From Octopus vulgaris (Eukaryota), in NCBI GenBank assembly GCA_951406725.2, contig OX597815.1, positions 212,040,001-212,104,000 on the forward strand: 64,000 nucleotides of DNA, given 5' to 3'. Of the stretch, positions 7,739 to 58,030 are shown piece after piece. Position 1 is the stretch's first letter, and each line of letters opens with the position of its first letter. The position numbers were made by a program, and so were the translations under genes. The notes under the pieces are model-generated. The model did no database searches. It was not told the origin of the DNA and was given only the letters and a program-made list of their open reading frames with translations.

Positions 7739-8493
7739 TGTTTCTTTATTAGCCACACAGGGCTGCACACAGATAGAACAAATTACAAGGTAGAGCTTTT
7801 CTTTTGGGGGTAAAAATAAGGGAGTGGTGGTTTTCGATCAAAAGGGATCGTAAAAGGAAAGAAAGAGGACAAAAAAAAGGGAGGGGTTAATAAAAAAAAA
7901 TTTTAAAAAAGGTGGGGGGAGAGCAAAAAAAATTGATCAATAGGGATCGTTATCACAGAAATGTCAATATGAAGTGTAAAGGGGGAGAACAGGTGAGGTT
8001 TACCCGTGGAAAGAAAAGCCTATGGAAAAGACCACGGTAACCTCGGTCAATGAAGTCACATGTTATATTTCTTTTTTTTTTTTGCAAATAAGCAACTCTC
8101 TGTATTAATTTTTACGGTTCATAGAATCATAGTCAAGGTGGCTTCGTCATTCATACGTGCCATCCTTGCTACATTCACCCATCTTTTTTTAAAACATTCA
8201 CTAGACAAAACTTGCCTCTCTACTCTCACTTTCCTCTTCAAGTGATACTTGAAGAAGTTGATGAGAGATTGACCAGAGAGGAAAGTGTTTGTCTCTAATC
8301 CTTTCAGGCGCGTCCACCAGATACATTCTTTCGCCATAGCCACAAGTATGATAAAAATAGCTCTTCCTTCCCGTTTAAAGGAAGGAGGCGTGACGATATT
8401 AACGATAGACTCGGCTGATAAACCGACTCGTCCCACACGTGACAGCAGTCGTTCGACATAAGCCCACAGGTCGGAAATTGCTGGACACTGCAC
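7739..8493 (-). mobile_element. 5'-truncated Tx1/L1-like LINE inserted in (GATA)n
   Basis: ORF2 C-terminus QCPAISDLWAYVE...MAKECIWWTR...FKKRW; AATAAA at the 3' end; (GATA)n on both flanks; second copy at 45061-45704. Confidence 0.85.
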
Positions 8494-8589
<96 letters not shown>

Positions 8590-9564
8590 TTCTCTGAGTG
8601 TGTAATATTGCAACTGTCACAAACTAACAACTCCTCTATAAATATCGTAGAAGCAAAAAACAAAAGCGACTGCGCCATCAGTTTAAATTTCGACAAGAAT
8701 CAGGAGTAACCGTGTTGTTGTACGAACATTAAAACAAAAGAAAGGAAATATGAGATGGCAGACGCCATCATTGCTCTGTTTACTTTCTTAAGTAACTCTT
8801 TACCCATAACATAACAATACCGCTATTAATAGATCGAAATGATTTACAGCTTAGGGTGAGTGAAGATGTAGGGGTAGGTGGTGAGGCAGGAAACTCGAAA
8901 TTAAAACTTGTGGGTCGCAGACGTGGGGCACAGGAACCGAGCATTCGTAACCGAGAACTGGAATCTGAGACAGGGAAGCGATGAGCTGAGTTGGAAATAG
9001 GATTCTAAATTACCAAAAGTAATAACATGATGGTTTTGTGCAGACTCTGGGAATAGTTTAGTGTGTGAAAGTTAGTTGTAATGATTCCATTATTCATGGC
9101 ATTCATTTATTGGGTACATTGGGGTGGATTTGCCAGATTTTCAGTTGTTTTCTATTCTGTAGAACGAGATTACGGATTTGATTAGGTGTCGGGCAACTAG
9201 CTAAAAGCTTGATGTTTCGTATCTTTGTTATGGACAGTGTGCAGACGCCATTGTCTGAAACCTTCAGTTACCATGGTTCATTAAGCTGTTCTGAGAGGAG
9301 GAGGAGGAAGAGGAGGAGGAGGAAGACGACGAGGACAGCGACAACAACAACAACAACTCGTTTGTTTACGCTACTACAGCATAAACATGAACCTGAAGCT
9401 TGCTAACAAAAATGTAATCCTAATAATTCTTTTTTTGAAAAAAAGGGATCTCGAAGTACATATAGAACTATAAATAGTAGCATATAAATATTGGGTTGGA
9501 AAACCCTTTTTGCACAGAAAAAGTTGCAGGTTGCTCAGTAACCCAGTGGGCACAAAAAAAAAAA

Positions 9565-10433
9565 AACAATATGCAATTGAACGAAGAAAAATGTGAGCTC
9601 ATCCACTTTGGAAACAATCATAAACATTTCCGTCGGGAGACCTACTTGAACCGTCGGATAATATCAGAGACATAGGAGTAACTATCGACAGCAACCTTAG
9701 CTGGAGTGTGAACATCAACGAAAAAGTCGATGTTACACGCAGAATGTGCTCATGGATCCTCAGAACTTTTCAATCTAGGGATCATGAAATCATCATTTTT
9801 CTCTTTTGCACACTCGCTAGGCCCCACCTCGCATACTGCTGCCCATTGTGGTCCCCTACAAAAAAACAAAACATAATGAGGATCGAAGTACCACAAAGAT
9901 CAATCACTAAAAAAATAAATGGCATGACGGGACTTGATTATTGGGCTCGACTTAAACAGCTGAAACTCTATTCTTTGCAACGCCACCGTGAGCGATACAT
10001 TATTTGCACCATGTGGAAGATATTCCACCAATATTATCCAAATGATATCGGTATTATGTTTACAATCTACCCAAGACTTCGATCCCCCTGCAATGCGTCC
10101 CCTACAAAGGTCGAGATCACAGAACATAAGAACATTGCGACACAATTTCTTTACTGCAAATGGTCCTGCTCTTTTCAATGTTAGCCCGAAATAAATTAAA
10201 GTAGAAAAGACCCCGCAACTATCAAACGGTACCTGGACAAATTTCTCCAGGAAATACCGGATAAATCACCTACAACAGGATACGTCTCAACCAACAACAA
10301 TACTCTGCTTGAGTGGTCCATGGTGTCCCGAAATAATCAAGTAAAATACTTTTCCAGGTGGTGCTATTGAGTTAGTCATAGCCTGAACCGATAATGGCCG
10401 AAACCAATCTAAGTTATCTAAGTTATCTAAGTT
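9565..10433 (+). mobile_element. 5'-truncated CR1/L2-group LINE (RT C-terminus plus 3' UTR), frameshifted
   Basis: MQLNEEKCELIHFG, RDIGVTIDSNLSW, RPHLAYCCPLWSP, LKLYSLQRHRER; ends in (ATCTAAGTT)3. Confidence 0.85.
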
Positions 10434-10717
10434 GACCCACATCTCCTGTAGACAAGGCTTGGAACAAGATAGTCCTTTGAATTTTTCAATCCATTTTAGA
10501 AATTTTATTCTTACCAGCCAGAATTGTATGCTTTTTACATCATAAGAATTTATAAACTTTCGAGAGAACATGAACTAATTCTTATAAGGAACAGTGAGTC
10601 TCGAAGTACATAAACCTATAAATAATAATATGTTCATATTGGGATGAAAAAATTTTGGGTTAAAAAACAGAAAAGTCAAAAATATTTTCTTTAATCATTT
10701 TTCATGGATAGCTTAAA

Positions 10718-11117
10718 TCTTTATATATAAAAGTGAGGTTGTGTGCTGTCTGTCTCCTACGATTTAGATTCCTAACTACTCCCACATTTTGCGGTGCAGT
10801 TTAACCAAAACCGGGTATCTTATAGTCGTGATTCATATCGAGCCCTTCTGGGTATTAGCGCGCGTCTACGATGAGTCTACGATTTGAAAAAAAATTTACC
10901 AGCAATTTTTCCCATTTTTAATGCATTTTTGGCATATATAAGGGAAGTAACTCTCTAAAAATTTATTATTATATCTCAGAACGTAAAAAGCTACAGTAAC
11001 ACCACCACCCCCTTTGTGGTTAGCCATATTGAGATGGCTATTATACTTTACATCACTAAAAATGCTTATATAGTTATTTCCCTTACAAACCCGAGCAACG
11101 CCGGGCGATACTGCTAG
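10718..11117 (+). mobile_element. Complete 400-bp non-autonomous Helitron
   Basis: A|TCTTTATATATAAAA start, subterminal GC hairpin cccgagcaacgccggg, CTAG|T end, no TSD. Confidence 0.85.
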
Positions 11118-11598
11118 TAAATTATAAAATTATTCCGAAGTACATAAAAATTTCCACATTTTATATAGAAACACAGTAATTATATTTTCTTGTAAGGTGG
11201 ACAGTTTTCATAATTTCTCGATGTATGCCTTCAAAATGTTGGCATATATTACAAGCGTGTTATCATATGGCAAGCATTATCTAACCGTATAAATATATAC
11301 ATTTGACCATAGACCACCAAGAGAGCAGAGAGTATGAATTTATTTCAATAGCTGAAAAGATTGAGACAAATTAGTTTTACTGAAAGCGGTGTTCTTTTGT
11401 TGTCACTCCGTACCTGGTTTTGTTACTGTGCATGGACTGTACAGCCGGCCAGTGATTCAAAAATGACTATGTATATCTAGCACATACACATACATATGTG
11501 TGTGTATATGTGTGTTTATATATATATATATATATGAAAAGAGGTTTATACATACATACATACATATATACATACATATACATATATATATGTATGTT

Positions 11599-11712
<114 letters not shown>

Positions 11713-11796
11713 TATATAAAGGAAATTACATATGCATATATAGAGAGGGACAGATAGAGGAGAGAGAGGGAAGTGATAGCGAAAAAGAAAGAATGA

Positions 11797-11872
<76 letters not shown>

Positions 11873-12999
11873 GTGGTGATGATAAGAAGATGAGTATGTA
11901 AGGGAATAAACCTATAGCTTTCTGTCTGAAGTATTAGATATTTTCACTCTTTATAGCAAACATGTCTCGTTTCCCTTCGTTTCTTTTCCATTTTACATCA
12001 TTGACTTTATCAGCGATTCAGGTCACTGTCTATTTCCGTTAGCCACCTTGACATCTAGTAATAATATTATGTTGTACGAAATGAGTTAAGTTACTCCTGG
12101 TCGATAGTTTACTATGCTATCATATCTAATTCAACAGCTACGTTCGCTATAGAATTTCAACACCTTCTTCCATACAATACGATATTGCCTAGGTGAGCGT
12201 TTGCCATATCTATTTCTTGATATATTATCTCGTTTAATAAGGAAAACGTCTATACTGTTTCAAATTAAATCTCTTTATATCAGTAGGAACAGCCACACAG
12301 CCGTACAGATGTGCACCTTGCTCTGGCGTAGGATCCAGATGCAAAAGCTCAACAACTCCAACGAAAGAAGATGTTCAGTCAGACAGCGTGAGAATATTGA
12401 AATATTGCGATATAAGCCGCATAACAACCAATGTTGGGCAATAGGAAAATAGGGATTAGAGAAATATTGAAGTAACATGAAGCTTTTACGAAAAAAAATT
12501 AGAATCGAGTCTGTTCAATCCAGAAAGCTGTTTACAGAAATTATCTGATAACATTGCTATATCTATTTGGTTCAGGTAGACAAGTTTATGTTCAACGAAA
12601 AGAGTAATTAAGCGATGACAAGGATGCAGAAATGCTAAATAGGGTTACCAATTTGCTAGAAATAACAGCTAAATTTGCTTGAAATCGGTCCCTTCTAACT
12701 AATTTAACAAAAGGAAAAGACATCTTGGCTAACTTAGTCCTAAATACTCTAAATTGGAATAAAAGATAGAATGACTTCGATGTTAAGATGTTTGCTTTGC
12801 AACAAGATGGCTTCTTGGTCAAGTGTCTTCGAGTTAACCAATGCCTGCGAGTGGAAGCCGGTAGATGGAGACTTTAAGGAAGCTCATTCCATATAAATGG
12901 GGGGAGGGCTTGTGTATAATGATCTGCAATGGTGCCTCAATTTGCGCCTCTTTACATCAAAAAGTGACTATTGAAATCAGTACTAATAATGATAATGAT

Positions 13000-13213
13000 C
13001 CTTTCTACTAAATGCACAAAGCTTGAAATTTGTGGGGAGGGAACTTGTCGATTACATCGACCCCAGTGTTTCACTGGTACTTAATTTATCGATCCCGAAT
13101 TGATGAAAGGCAAAGTCAACCTCGGCGGAATTTGAATTCAGAACATGAAGGCGGGTGAAATACTGCTAAGCATTTCGTCCAGCGTGCTAACGATTCTGCC
13201 AGCTCGCCGCCTT
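13000..13213 (-). mobile_element. SINE family D monomer (tail B)
   Basis: Reverse complement of the family D head and core. Further copies at about 15535-15745(-), 17590-17795(-), 17945-18110(-), 18605-18750(-), 18765-18972(-), 24516-24940(+, two), 34080-34290(+), 35270-35470(-), 41370-41590(+), 46925-47095(+). Confidence 0.85.
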
Positions 13214-13295: not shown

Positions 13296-13950
13296 AAGGG
13301 TTTGATCCAGTAGCCATCTGGTCCCGGGGCTTTCAGTTGCTCATTTTATTTGCTGATTTCCTTCACTTCCCTAACTGAAATGACTACTTCTGCCTGTTTT
13401 GCACAGACTACTGTTTGTTTCAGTTCTTGCAACCATTCAGCATCCTTCTTGTGCTCCTTGTCTTTGCTCCAGATGTCATTCCCAAACCTTTGACTTTCAT
13501 TGTTATCTGGTATCAACTTTTCATCTGTACATTCTCCATTTCTTTCTTTATAGAATCTCTTTTGATCTACTCTGAATAACCTATCTTGGTTGTAACCCTT
13601 CATTCTTTGGTCGTATCTTACCATCTTCGCTTTCTTTGCAACGAGGCGCTGTTTCAGTTCCTCCACTACTACTTTCAGGCCTTTTCTTTCAATATTATAC
13701 TTCCTTTTCAGCGCCCTGTATTTTTGTTCGCTTTTAAGCTCCCCTTTCTCTTTTCGGTCTAACACAGAGATTTCCTTCGAGAGATTGTCTAACCCTGCTT
13801 GGATTCTTTTCCGCCATGGATCTTTTCTTTTGTCACTCCCATTATGTTTCTTTTTCTTGACATCAACACCCACCTTTTCTGCTACATCAATACTTGCTGC
13901 CTTAATCAAATTATTTGTTTCTAAGTACAACAATATTCTCCTAAACATCA
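13296..13950 (-). mobile_element. R4/Dong-like non-LTR retrotransposon fragment (pre-RT region)
   Basis: PWRKRI...EELKQRLVAKKAKMVRYDQR..NQDRLFRVDQKRFYKE...IWSKDKEHKKDAEWL...KMSN*KAPGPDGYW; abuts (TAA)n. Short second copy at 15905-16038 (+). Confidence 0.8.
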
Positions 13951-14049
13951 TTATTGGGAATACTTTAACATACATAATGCACTCCAGTACAAAAACCATG
14001 AAGATGTGACAGGAGATGGCAAAAGAGCTGATAATATTACACTGCAAAT

Positions 14050-14470
14050 AAGGCGACGAGCTGGCAGAATCGCTAGTACGCCGGGAAAAATGCTTAGCGG
14101 CATTTGGTCCGTCAGGCGTTAGCACGCCAGGCGAAATTCTAAGCGGTATTTCGTCTGCCGTTACGTTCTGAGTTCAAATTCCGCCGAGGTCGACTTTACC
14201 CTTCATCCTTTCGGAGTCGATAAATTAAGTACCAGTTACTCACTTTGGTCGATGTAATCGACTTAATCCGTTCGTCTGTACTTGTTCGTCCCCTCTGTGT
14301 TTAGCCCCTTGTGGGTAGTAAAGAAATAGGCATTTGGTCCGTCGTTACGTTCTGAGTTCAAATTCCGCCGAGGTCGACTTTGCTCTTCATACTTTCGAGG
14401 TCGATAAAATAAGTACCAGTTGAGTACTGGGGTCGATGTAACCGACTTAACTCCACCCCTAAAATTTGAA
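14050..14470 (+). mobile_element. Nested family D SINEs: tail-A copy (14114-14328) inside an older copy
   Basis: 15-bp direct repeat ggcatttggtccgtc at 14099-14113 and 14329-14343. Confidence 0.85.
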
Positions 14471-20392: not shown

Positions 20393-20677
20393 CAATAATG
20401 ATAAAGGGTAAAATTAATTAATCAATTAATAATTAATAATTTTACCAAGTAGTTCGGTATGTTAAAAGAACCATTATCGGTAAACTTATACAAAAATTCT
20501 TTAATTATGAGCATAATTATAATTAGGGTTCAGCAAAATTTGCTTCACCACATACCGAAATTTAGAAATAGCAGTTAAAATACTCTTCTGCTACCATAAG
20601 AAATCTCCCAGACAACAATACTCAACAACTCACGCAGGTAAAGAGAAAGAAATAACGAATCTACCCGGCTTTGCTAA

Positions 20678-20760
20678 ACTGTATACGCGTTTCGGGGTTA
20701 GAGAGATGTAAAAAATGTAAAATCATATTTCTACTCACTCATTCCCTTTGTCAGAACAGT
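20678..20760 (-). ncRNA. Type I hammerhead-like motif (G8->A mutated)
   Basis: actgtt-CTGACAA-a-ggg...ccc-GAAAC-GC-GTA-tacagt. Confidence 0.65.
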
Positions 20761-20832
20761 ATTTCAAATTTTTAATTTGAGAGCACTGATAATTAACATA
20801 CGTATTCGACCAAGCGCCATAACATTTGAAAT

Positions 20833-20914
20833 ACTGTATGACGAAGGGAATGAGTGAGTAGAAATATAGTTTTACATTTTTTACATCTCCCTAACCCCGA
20901 AACGCGTATACAGT
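20833..20914 (+). ncRNA. Type I hammerhead-like motif (C3 lost)
   Basis: actgta-TGACGA-a-ggg...ccc-GAAAC-GC-GTA-tacagt; perfect 6-bp stem I and palindromic ACGCGT helix III. Confidence 0.7.
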
Positions 20915-21129
20915 TAATCAAAGCCGGGTGGATTTGTTATTTTTTTCTCTTGATCTGCATGAGTTGTTGAGTATTGCTGTCTGGGAGATATATTATGGTA
21001 GTGGAATAGTATTTTAACTGCTATTTCTAAATTTCGGTTTGTGGTGAAGCAATTTTGCTGAACCCTAATTATAATTATACTCATAATTATAGAATTTTTA
21101 TTGTTATATATATATATAAAACAGCACCT

Positions 21130-21163
<34 letters not shown>

Positions 21164-21896
21164 GTAGAAAGGTGCTGTTTGTAACACAAGCACAAGGCCA
21201 TACATCTATGGGGTTTGGGGAACAGTTGATTAATTTGATCATTGACACTTTAATTCATTAAGCAAGAAGGAATGAAAGAATAAGTTGATCTTGGCTGGAT
21301 TTGAATTCAAAACGCAAAGAGCTGGAACAAATTCCGCAAGGTGCTCGCCTGGCGCTCCACCGCTTTTAGCATTCTAATTTTGTTTAATGGTTTAGATGAG
21401 AAACGGCAGCTTTTATGGCCTTTAATTGAGCCTTCTGCTTGATAAAAAAAATTGTAACGCGTAGATTTCTGCTGTAGTAATTGGAGGGCATGAGAAATAC
21501 TGAGTGGATTCGCGGACTAGATCCGAATATCGCAAGAGTGAGCTCTGCAGAAAGTACCCTACGACCTGATCGTGGTGGTTGTGGTAGTGGTGGTGGTGGT
21601 GGTGTTAAACCGAACCAGAATGAAGTGTACCATTTAAGAACATGTTGTAAGTGCTTCTACCATTGTAGTACCGGTGCTTATACAATTTTTCACTTGTGCT
21701 TCTACCATTTTGGTACCGATACTTCTACTCCTTTTGTTATACCAGTTTTCTTTAACTAGTTGATGATGAAACATTTCTTATGCTAGAAATCGTGCCATCT
21801 ATTGCAAAAGTTGCGTATAAAGAATTTAAGTTCAGCAATGTCTGCTGATGACTTTCTCAATAATTGCAGAATAATTACAGAGATGCAGAACGGAAC

Positions 21897-21947
21897 TTTA
21901 TCAGTGAACAGGTTGCGGTCTCAAAGCGACGAAAATATTTTGATAAA
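21897..21947 (+). ncRNA. Minimal type I hammerhead-like motif with G3-C8 core swap
   Basis: tttatca-GTGAACA-g-gttgc-ggtctcaaa-gcgac-GAA-AATATT-T-tgataaa: 7-bp stem I, 5-bp stem II, palindromic helix III. Confidence 0.7.
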
Positions 21948-23232
21948 TTAAATTTAAATGTTGAAGTGAATCTAACGGATTTTGTTTGTTTCTTAAATGG
22001 CTTATAAACACCTTCTACGCTGCAATTGTTTTCCTGCCAGCACTCGATCTCAGACCAGGTCACTTGCTATGCAAGTACATCTCCGTAATACAGAATAATC
22101 ATTGCCTACAAGTACTCTATTGGTAATTGAATGCCTTTACCAACTTTAAGAGAGAAGAATAAAATTTTGAAGACTTTGGAGCGGTAATTCTAGCAGAGCC
22201 TTCTTTGTTTACTTTACATTGCACTGTCCACTGTTATGTCCATCTGAAAAATCCTGGTGGCAGTTGTGCATGAATAGAGAATAGCTGCCCAGACTATTAT
22301 ACTTCACTCGATACGACTCGCCATTGCATATCAGAGTGTGCGGTGTGATGATTCATTTCTGCATTTTGAATTGCGCAATGTGATTCTCAGTTAGGTGACA
22401 GTGTGCTGCATCTATAATCATGCACCTATGGGTTGTAACTTAATCGTTTGAACCTCGACCGTGCGAGCAAAGAACCAGAGCTGACTGGGGACCATATCGC
22501 CATCACAACAATAACGGACGTCTTTATATGAAAAACATCGTAACGCTGGTGATGGAATGTGAACCGTCATTCCATCCCATCGAGAGGTAGACCAGAACTT
22601 AATTACTCATTAACTCGATATTCCAGCTAATGATAGCCATTTCGATGTTGATGTTTTAATCCTTAATTGTTCAGTTGTCATTTTGGTGTGTGGGTTTTGG
22701 TGAGTATAATGTTTACGAACATATTTTCTGTCAGACTGCAGATTAATGTATATTCCAGGAATCTCTATGAAATTTATCCTAAGTGCTCATATTTAATGGC
22801 AAACAGCAGCATCTATAGAGCACTGCAAACAGATTTCCCACGACTATCTTCCTTTCGTGGGCCAGGTCGTTTCTGACCTTGGCACGATTAAAGCAAAAAA
22901 AAAAAAATGAAATGCAAGGGGTTTTCTCTGTTCTCAAATGACTCCATTCTTACAGAATATAAAATGTAAAAACAGGCAAAACAAAAATAAAAGCGACTGC
23001 AAATTGAAATGGAGAGAAGGGGGAGAGGACGATAGCGAAAAATAAAACATTCTGATAATGTTACCCTTTGTTTAAAGCGAAAAGATACCAAAGAACCACC
23101 CACTGACATTAGCAAACCACGCATTGGTTGCATCAGTTTCGGATATCTGAAGAGGGTAAATTTTTTCCTTTTTCTGTATCGCCAACTCATCTAAATGAAT
23201 TTGCAATGCTAAATAAGCATCACCTCACCCTC

Positions 23233-43094: not shown

Positions 43095-44480
43095 ATAACA
43101 TAGAAGTTGCATTCAAGATGAAATGGGGAAATGTTTTGTTGTGATTGGCATTCTTCAGGACGGTAGAGAACCCCTTGTGACCATGCTCACCAATCTGTTT
43201 AACAAGTGCTTCGAAAATGGCAATATCCCCCAACAGTTTGAAGAACGCAATAGTGATCTGGGTTTAAAAAAAGGTAACAAAACAGACTTGATGGACGACC
43301 GTCCCATCAGTTTCCTGTCCATCATCTTCAAGGTGTTTTCCCACATTATGCTTAGAAGAATGTTCAGTGCCTTGAATCTCTATCAACCAAAAGAACAAAC
43401 AGGCTTCAGAATAGGATTCTTTACTATTGATCACACTCAGGTTGTCTGTCAACTGCACGAGAAAGTGAATGAATGCAACATCCCGCTACGCGTTGCTTTG
43501 TTGATGATAAGAAGGCCTTCGGCTCCATAGAATTCACTCTGTCCCTTACAGCACTGAAGAACTAAGTAGTGGACCCCGACTACCTTGCAATATTGAAAGA
43601 TCTTTACAGCGGTGCAACATCGACCTTCAGACTACACCAAGACAGTGATAAAATCAAGCTGTAGAGAGGAGCAAGGCAATGCGACATCTCACAAAAGTTG
43701 TTTACATCGTGCCTGTAAGATACCGTCATCAGAAAAACCCAATGGCACAAGAAAGGCATCAACTTTGACGGAGAACAACTATGCCATCAAGATTACGAGG
43801 ATGATATCACCTTGATAGCGCATACGCCTAAGAAACTGGAAATACCGATATCCACGCTACAAGTCAACCTGTCGACTTCAACATGAACCTTGGAAAAAGG
43901 CTAAAGTCATATTCAACAGGCACGCACGCCAGCGCCCTTCACCGTAAACAGCAAGACCATAGGAGACGTTGGCAGCTACTTTTTACCTGGGGAAGAACTG
44001 GACAAAAGACGGAAATCTCCTCTCGGAGATCAAGAAAAGACTAGCGTTTGTTTGGACGGCCTTTGGAAAGGTGGGAAATCTCATGAGAAGTCCCAAGGTA
44101 CATCCTACCAGTGATGATTTACGGTAATGAAGCATTGGCTCTCAATACTTCCACCATGAACTCCCATATTGTAGCTCAAAGGAAAATGGAACGAATCATT
44201 GTCCGCATCACATTGTGGGACAAGAAAGCCAACGCCTGGATACGACAACACACGAGAGTCAACGCCACCATAAGAATCATCAAGAAGAACAAATCTAGGT
44301 GGCCTGGCCACATCGCACGACTGAAGGACAGCAGATGGACAATAAGACAACGGGATAGACACCAAGACAATGGACAAGATAAAGAGGCCGACCAAAGACA
44401 AGGTAGCTAGCTGATCTCATTCGTTACATGAGGCCTACATGGTTATGACTGGCCAGAGATAGACAGCGGTAGATGAAGCC
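43095..44480 (+). mobile_element. Decayed RTE-clade LINE (RT and C-terminal region)
   Basis: LFNKCFENGNIP..KKGNK..DDRPISFLSIIFKVF..EQTGFRIGFFTIDH; AQRKMER..WIRQHT..RWPGHIARLKDSRWT; multiple frameshifts. Confidence 0.88.
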
Positions 44481-56459: not shown

Positions 56460-58030
56460 TTAGAGTGTCGTAGTTGTCATGTGAAATTAGTTGAACGATA
56501 CTTCGGCATCTAGCGTTCCTTCCACAGGTTCAAAAATTACTGGTCAGTCTACTTCATTTTTTTTTTTTTTGTTTGTTAAGATTATATAGGACTGAGGTAA
56601 ACTCCTCCAGAAGTTATAGAGAAATAAATAGAATAAATGGTATAATTGGAAATTAGTATTCCACACTGACATGTTGTGCTTCAAGAAGTTTGAAATCACA
56701 GGAGAAATTTTGAAGATATCTAGCGATTTCAAGATCCATGAAATGCGGTGTACTGTCAAAGGCCTTTTTATAACCAATCCATGCGGAACTGAGATTTCTG
56801 CGTTTGTTATGACAGTTCTCAAAGATCCTGTGATTGCTTAAGAGTTGTTCTTTGCATCCATATGAGCCTCGTCGGCACCCTTTTTGCTTAGTGGGGAAAA
56901 TATCGTTCTGTTCCATAAATTTATATGTTTTCTCCACGAAGATGGATGTTAAAATTTTATACGTGGTAAATAGACATGTTATGGGCCGATAGTTTTTAGG
57001 AAATTTGGTTTCATTATTCTTCGGGAGTAGGTAAGTAATACTTCCTGCGAACCAATCAGGTGTTTTCGTAATTCATAATTTCATTGAATAACTGGACTAA
57101 TTTTTCGTATGTGCATAGGAGCGATGCGAGCCAGAAATTTGTCACCCTATCATTACCAGATTTCAACTTATGAGCGTTCGTGTCATCCTTAGGTCTGCTA
57201 TTGAGATGTCTTCCCATGCTTCTTCTGGTAAGTTATGATAGGATCCTTCTATGTGTTTAATCTAGTCTACATTTTCATCGTAGGTCATTTCATCACTCCA
57301 AATACTTTTCCAAAAGTTTTTAACTTCTTCCATAGGAATGGGGTCTTCAACGGTTATTTTCTCCTTCCCTATTTCTCTGTAGAATATTTTCGCATTGGAT
57401 GTGAACAGCTTATTTTTCTTGTAAAACTTGTTTCTCTTCTCAAATCTTCGTATTCTTTGAGCTTTTGCTTGGACATTTTGTTGCAGTGTTTATTTTGCTG
57501 AAAGCAGTTCTTCTCTTGGTGAGAATATATGTTTTCTTTCTTCTTAGGTTTGTATTTCTTCGTTCTTCTCAGAAGCATACAACCGGTTTCAATTTTCTTA
57601 GCAGCTCCGTAAATAATTTCATTTAATTCAGTGAGATCTGGTTTTCCTTCTTGTATCATTTCTTTTGTTACATGGTTTCCAATTTTAATTTGTTTTCTAT
57701 TTTGGATTGTATTTGAGAGCTTATGAAGTGATTCTCAATCATGCATATTGACGTGTCTTACAACTTCAAGATTATTCCAGATATTCTGCCTCTTTTGTAT
57801 CATAGACTCTTTATGTTCTTCAGTAAATGTGTTGTCTTTTCAAATATCGTTTCCTTACCACTTTCTTCGCTGTCTTTATCAGGTTCATTACAATCTATGT
57901 CTTCAGACGTTTGCGTGTTCTGGTCAGATGGCAATCTTTCAACTGTGACTCGTGGAGAGTTGCACTTTTCATCTGGTTCTCCATTTCCTTTCTGTCTTGA
58001 TCGCGGTTATTTCACTGTCTGTGACTCTTA
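56460..58030 (-). mobile_element. Decayed R4/Dong-like retrotransposon (N-terminal region to RT)
   Basis: KQKGCRRGSYGCKEQLL..NLSSAWIGYKKAFDSTPH; PKNYRPITCL; (TAA)n on the flanks. Confidence 0.85.

Follow-up and report, generated by a model that had tools for sequence, protein, structure and literature searches.

A Penelope-like retroelement end-copy carrying a hammerhead motif with a natural G3-C8 core pair in an animal genome

The 209-bp unit found at 21881..22089 of the window (the whole stretch of 64,000 nucleotides of Octopus vulgaris DNA analysed here; features are on the forward strand unless marked otherwise) is the terminal repeat (pLTR) of a Penelope-like retroelement (PLE) together with the first 31 codons of its ORF. 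The hammerhead motif inside it is a core variant of the minimal type I hammerhead already known from PLEs, the element itself being an ordinary PLE end-piece. The variant concerns the pair between core positions 3 and 8, the tertiary contact of the active hammerhead fold, which here is G3-C8. The reading that we consider probable is that the unit is a short PLE end-copy, bearing a minimal type I hammerhead whose G3-C8 pair is lineage-wide and which is predicted to cut slowly after U17. The first-pass annotation had seen in this DNA a small non-coding mobile element with a new ribozyme variant. The first description is not supported, since the unit joins the end of a pLTR to the start of an ORF and was inserted with a target-site duplication; of the second, the core variant stands, its activity being predicted, but the kind of ribozyme was already known.

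The hammerhead geometry at 21897-21947 is real and beyond chance. Helix I, recognised by a motif descriptor and by folding, has 7 bp, its 5' arm (21897-21903) pairing in the fold with a 3' arm at 21941-21947. Between the arms lie the core G3 U4 G5 A6 A7 C8 A9 (GTGAACA, 21904-21910), an extra G between A9 and helix II (21911), helix II with 5 bp including one G-U and with G10.1-C11.1 (21912-21916 with 21926-21930; 21912-21930 with its 9-nt loop, the sequence of which varies by subfamily), GAAA (21931-21934), the palindromic helix III AATATT (21934-21939) and U17 (21940), giving a UUU triplet. Hammerhead numbering would place the cut between 21940 and 21941. These parts had all been correctly located before, although the extra G was overlooked. 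Helices I and II around U4-G5-A6, A9, GAAA and U16.1-H17, as in a minimal type I hammerhead, are present, as are a Watson-Crick 3-8 pair, an extra nucleotide at 9/10.1, G10.1-C11.1 and a palindromic helix III; the canonical sequence CUGANGA is absent from the motif, whose core is GUGAACA. Searched with a descriptor that fixes these helix lengths and allows any Watson-Crick pair at 3-8, the window gave one match, against matches in 0 of 150 dinucleotide shuffles; when the helices were relaxed to 4/4 bp, 16 of 150 shuffles had a match. The Rfam scan of the window gave nothing at gathering score. Fold prediction assigned helices I and II pair probabilities of at least 0.93 in a 66-nt window piece (terminal pair 0.73), those of the window copy dropping to about 0.6-0.7 in the 210-nt unit, and the 216 nt folded whole did no better than shuffles (z -0.32). 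The palindromic helix III is present, but the designed dimer through it is not the predicted minimum (-19.0 kcal/mol, against -25.6 for the cofold minimum and about -21 for two monomers). A double change in helix I, from G-C to A-U, is private to the window copy among 82 distinct copies.

The target-site duplication has its left copy at 21865..21875 (an exact 9 bp at 21867-21875, or 11 bp if one mismatch is allowed) and its right copy at 22089..22099 (exact part 22091-22099). The left copy is separated from the unit by a 5-nt junction filler, TACAG (21876..21880), the same 5 nt with which the right target duplication begins; in parent copies of the element this place is taken by TTCTC. The unit is 94% identical to the family majority sequence, and the 31 codons occupy 21997..22089. 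The shorter 3' end point of the family (unit positions 146-152) falls at 22026..22032, and an optional tail of about 58 nt (22033..22089) leads from there to the longer one (unit positions 207-209). The inverted terminus described before does exist as an 11/12 match, but its left arm draws 2 nt from the target duplication and 5 nt each from the filler and the element, and none of 18 other copies scored in the same way reaches 11 (range 5-10). As a terminal inverted repeat it was rejected, being mostly target duplication and filler and not common to other copies. The match is also what would favour a MITE-like DNA element with terminal inverted repeats and a coincidental hammerhead look. However, it is peculiar to the window copy, target duplications vary in length (7-14 bp at many loci, unreadable in (TA)n sites), the copies carry 5' inversions, the unit is linked to an ORF with reverse transcriptase (RT) and GIY-YIG regions, and the motif arises by chance in 0 of 150 shuffles. 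The conserved terminal inverted repeats and the fixed-length duplications that define MITE or TIR DNA transposons were not found, and the locus survey, the ORF linkage and the inverted-match scoring refute this reading, to which we give practically no credence. Target duplications of variable length and AT-rich targets are as expected for an EN+ PLE.

In this 2.8-Gb, microsatellite-rich genome the unit belongs to a large family. Among the best 40 of 2,621 candidates, 39 were near-full other copies at 91-94% identity. A 35-nt hammerhead pattern left open at core positions 3, 4, 7 and 8 had 1,406 exact matches in the genome (inverted pieces and duplicates counted) and 0 in the control; 95 of the first 100 were G3-C8, five had one of the two bases changed and none was C3-G8. 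Ninety loci were sampled, 30 for full length, 30 by the hammerhead pattern (nine of them duplicates of one insertion) and 30 by a 5' pattern. An inverted piece adjoins the 5' end in 32 of the 90, and the 3' ends lie at unit positions 146-152 in 21, at 204-209 in 66 and elsewhere in 3. The inverted 5' pieces and the end pattern match the hallmarks described for PLEs (PMC8557442). Variants found in more than 10% of the 82 distinct copies are confined to the 5' flank and loop II or keep a pair as G-U. Sequencing runs under three organism labels each held about 8,000-13,000 matching contigs (contigs being the material in all 24 runs examined), with no variant at 3% or more at eight core positions and with helix II showing CpG decay; an insect metatranscriptome had seven contigs, which were left out of the evidence. 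Two local arrangements were also seen. One palindromic insertion (L034, L042-L044, L051, L055-L058) has been multiplied inside a larger repeat on contig C1, with 700 bp upstream and 600 bp downstream in common, and a tandem array at L183:2660-6233 is made of units of about 425 bp, each with one full element copy plus host sequence.

The parent element was recognised in loci where the unit follows coding sequence. At L053 and L321 an inverted pLTR, a truncated ORF end and a microsatellite-rich 3' UTR precede the unit, and the GIY-YIG region is 43% identical to that of an intact sister PLE; L321 displays the full arrangement of an ORF, a pLTR behind it and an inverted 5'-truncated copy. A DNA search with this ORF end gave 354 candidates, and in 15 of 30 fetched loci the unit lies about 1 kb behind the ORF (within a 1.5-kb flank), with a common 3' UTR that makes chance insertion an unlikely source of the link. 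G3-C8 is found in 10 of the 14 parent-linked units shown. Parent copies are about 40-65% identical to sister residues 625-1304, and YVDD is found in the parent RT region at L353. The 31-codon frame of the tail runs on in L116 and L117, where it matches the N-terminus of the sister protein to residue 89 at 39-40%, and therefore the unit is the end of a pLTR with the start of an ORF. RT and GIY-YIG in one ORF, a pLTR behind that ORF, and an optional ORF-start tail with two 3' ends are all features of EN+ PLEs. A fully intact parent ORF was not found, the parent copies seen being broken or truncated. Searching the genome and 20 fetched regions for the GIY-YIG domain of Pfam revealed no parent (three unit matches looked like insertions), twenty loci picked for long frames through the tail were microsatellite or host sequence, and a protein search with the sister RT returned the sister family alone.

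The sister family is very active, with many intact and identical ORFs of 1,309 aa (L225:1772-5698, L261-L290). Its ORF begins with a peptide homologous to that of the unit, and in the alignment the ends of its copies coincide with the two end points of the window family. The score of the window family majority against the sister pLTR was reached by 1 of 1000 shuffles and that of the unit peptide against the sister by 2 of 5,000; the window copy alone against the sister pLTR was not significant (157 of 1000). The whole sister ORF had no match in Pfam, its C-terminal piece matched GIY-YIG at E=0.001, below cut-off, and its Atlas neighbours at 0.96-0.97 carry GIY-YIG/RVT_1. The sister resembles the Neptune/Nematis PLEs with C-terminal EN (PMC8557442) in its C-terminal GIY-YIG and cysteine-rich linker, with the (TA)n preference, the tandem or inverted pLTRs and the tail at one end only also shared, but differs from them in an ORF of 1,309 aa, in DKS instead of DKG and in a spacing of about 135 aa from RT motif A to motif B. 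The L225 ORF, which combines this spacing and the DKS motif with a long Asn-rich N-terminal insert and with GIY-YIG at the C-terminus, may represent an unassigned PLE clade with an insertion-in-fingers-like segment.

Related elements are present elsewhere in the genome and in the window itself. Neptune-like PLEs (a 781-aa ORF family and relatives; L068, L070, L071, L074, L079, L085, L167) carry minimal hammerheads with U3-A8, and canonical-core (C3-G8) hammerheads with a 60-70-nt insertion in loop II occur at L122, L123, L126, L135 and L141. At 540-1526 of the window, on the reverse strand, lies a 5'-truncated PLE of the same clade, its GIY-YIG region 41-43% identical to the sister protein and followed by the remains of a hammerhead near 772-725 and by a pLTR tail, at the end of which stands a TATG repeat. 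A 608-bp palindrome (20492-21099, arms 91-96% complementary) sits between (TA)n tracts and is related to the PLE loci L229 and L068; what seems to be a decayed hammerhead of the canonical type, with a long loop II, can be read by eye in each arm. The open frames 9624-10184 (+), 13346-14173 (-), 43099-43530 (+) and 56653-57072 (-) look like putative fragments of LINE-type reverse transcriptase genes.

The history of the 3-8 pair can be followed across these families. When the same frame was searched for with C/U3 and G/A8, it had 2,305 matches (control 67), mostly C3-G8-A9 families with the extra G, and a pattern for G3-C8 outside the loop of the window family had 177 (control 23). Of 30 loci fetched from the latter, 18 are members of older families that have C at position 7, other loops and, in the largest group, a helix III palindrome of 4 nt; the core state of these older families is partly given by construction, since the pattern demanded G3 and C8, their position in the tree being independent of it. 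Downstream of the hammerhead, G3-C8 families are 60-75% identical to the window family and C3-G8 families 49-54%, and a tree of 41 sequences from this region grouped all C3-G8 families apart from all G3-C8 ones (support 0.984). Majority sequences of the families differ by paired changes at 3-8 (C-G vs. G-C), at helix II pair 4 (A-U vs. G-C) and at 15.2-16.2 (G-C vs. A-U), and the helix III palindrome has 4 nt in family D and 6 nt in the window family. Because C3-G8 is the state of related families and G3-C8 that of older relatives at 60-75% identity, the swap is a natural one, which probably happened once and has been kept for long. The claim of a natural compensatory variant is supported, the pair being fixed in the window family and its older relatives with C3-G8 in homologous families. 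In an old family of the same clade (L250, L355-L359) 6 copies have a U3-G8 core, where the pair may be in an intermediate state. C9 marks the youngest and most active sister subfamily, the pattern for which had 3,235 matches, with C9 in nearly all of the first 100, while older sister copies have A9.

Retention of the pair does not by itself say what was selected, and a rather unlikely alternative, yet the most serious that we weighed, is that the motif has the same PLE origin but no longer cuts usefully. G3-C8 would then be a relic of relaxed selection, the fold riding along or being kept for protein binding, RNA stability or as promoter sequence. C9 in the most active sister subfamily, the U3-G8 family and G8 in 4 of the 82 distinct copies of the window family are tolerated without compensation, which argues against strict catalytic selection, and the copies keep the motif uncut. 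Cleavage is slower with U17 than with C17, and U17 together with the extra G departs from the fastest known designs, as the relic reading would have it. PLE hammerheads have moreover been described as slow, weak or inactive as monomers (PMC4209133), and the anole PLE can insert in vitro without its hammerhead, the cleavage of which is protein-assisted (PMC11167929). Against this stand the helices I and II kept within the family, where common variants never break a helix, and the paired changes between families. A double change that restores a tertiary pair and is kept across families 60-75% alike is what selection for the active fold predicts, and the pair stays while position 7, loop II and the length of helix III change. 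The end-copy reading is also favoured by an engineered PLE hammerhead, in which the C3G/G8C double change leaves partial cleavage in the presence of protein (PMC11167929). C3G partly rescues G8C (PMC11167929; PMC8495972), and an engineered G3-C8 variant is mentioned elsewhere (PMC3884650).

Under the active end-copy reading, cleavage after U17 would be slow and would likely take place only in a dimer or with help from the protein of the element. By analogy with the anole PLE, this protein would nick AT-rich DNA, and reverse transcription would be primed internally on the RNA, at either of two sites within the ORF start, giving the ends at 146-152 or 207-209; 22026..22032 would be the first of these starts (PMC11167929). 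The template appears to start near unit position 1, probably the start of transcription, because all 30 copies chosen by the hammerhead pattern align from unit positions 1-17, only L053 continuing into the parent UTR, whereas sister copies extend 4-1,502 nt upstream. Initiation at the first site would then yield a copy of 150-209 bp. As the copies keep the whole ribozyme, the uncut RNA is presumably the template. The swap would have arisen once and then persisted, both the fold and the 3-8 pair being still of importance.

The same uniform 5' boundary, together with short copies that are mostly 92-98% identical to the majority and parent ORF pieces of which the best 40 are 80-86% identical to the decayed query copy, could be expected of an independent replicon, retrozyme-like or SINE-like, in which the 209-bp unit is cut by the hammerhead, circularised and copied from the circle. 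We regard this as very unlikely, as head-to-tail arrays joined at the cut site were absent from the 90 loci and 20 further ones, copies do not pile up at position 61, and in the only tandem array seen the unit measures 425 bp and the copies are separated by host sequence. Besides, the copies have PLE-type inversions and two tail ends, and short copies may be re-copied in trans without any circle. Returning to the PLE end-copy, its 5' boundary in parent copies has a branch-point-like CTAAC, a pyrimidine tract and an AG right there, and the sequence fits either an internal promoter or a 5' intron, both of which are known from Drosophila Penelope (PMC2377424). No common first exon was found ahead of the short copies. 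G stands at -1 in 8 of 21 copies (p=0.02 against 17.5%) in a sample partly biased towards G, after three junctions explained by the inverted arm were dropped, which hints weakly at a copied cap. The 5' ends of sister copies, clustered as they are at inversion junctions, are uninformative on transcription start versus 3' splice site.

Hammerheads in the pLTRs of metazoan PLEs are well known (PMC4209133; reviewed in PMC6765202). As described in PMC4209133, they share with the window motif type I architecture, the extra nucleotide at 9/10.1, G10.1-C11.1, a palindromic helix III, the location in the pLTR, thousands of solo copies and inverted pairs, with U17 also in their alignment. The differences are the 3-8 pair (C3-G8 and U3-A8 covariant there, G3-C8 in the window family), the extra nucleotide (consensus H there, G in the window) and helix I (4-5 bp there, 7 in the window). 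The Poseidon element PAc of Anolis carolinensis (PMC11167929) likewise has a pLTR hammerhead, an ORF-start tail, two 3' ends and AT-rich targets; its G3-C8 is however a laboratory mutant, where in the window family the pair is natural, its ORF starts inside helix II instead of about 93 nt after the core, and its tail has 30-40 nt instead of about 58. Natural 3-8 covariation is also described by Perreault et al. 2011 (PMC3088659), with U3-A8 as the only case reported, and a comparison of 11 supplementary files of that work with four G3-C8 core strings gave no match, though gapped or DNA-spelled rows would escape it. A natural G3-C8 core was not found in the literature searched, the coverage of which is incomplete, so that an earlier description is possible.

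Natural C-G and U-A were known at positions 3-8, G-C being known to us only from engineered mutants. A natural G-C lineage next to canonical cores and to uncompensated sister cores is a ready series for asking whether selection acts on cutting or on shape, an open question for PLE hammerheads (PMC4209133, PMC11167929). Sequence searches with the standard CUGANGA miss this family and hence undercount hammerhead motifs. More tentatively, as a possibility that we would not yet call likely, an active G3-C8 hammerhead may have been selected through a long-lived PLE lineage, in a clade that also samples C3-G8, U3-G8 and C9, with the 209-bp pLTR copy keeping the promoter and both priming sites and spreading as a mini-element; other animal genomes may hide such families.
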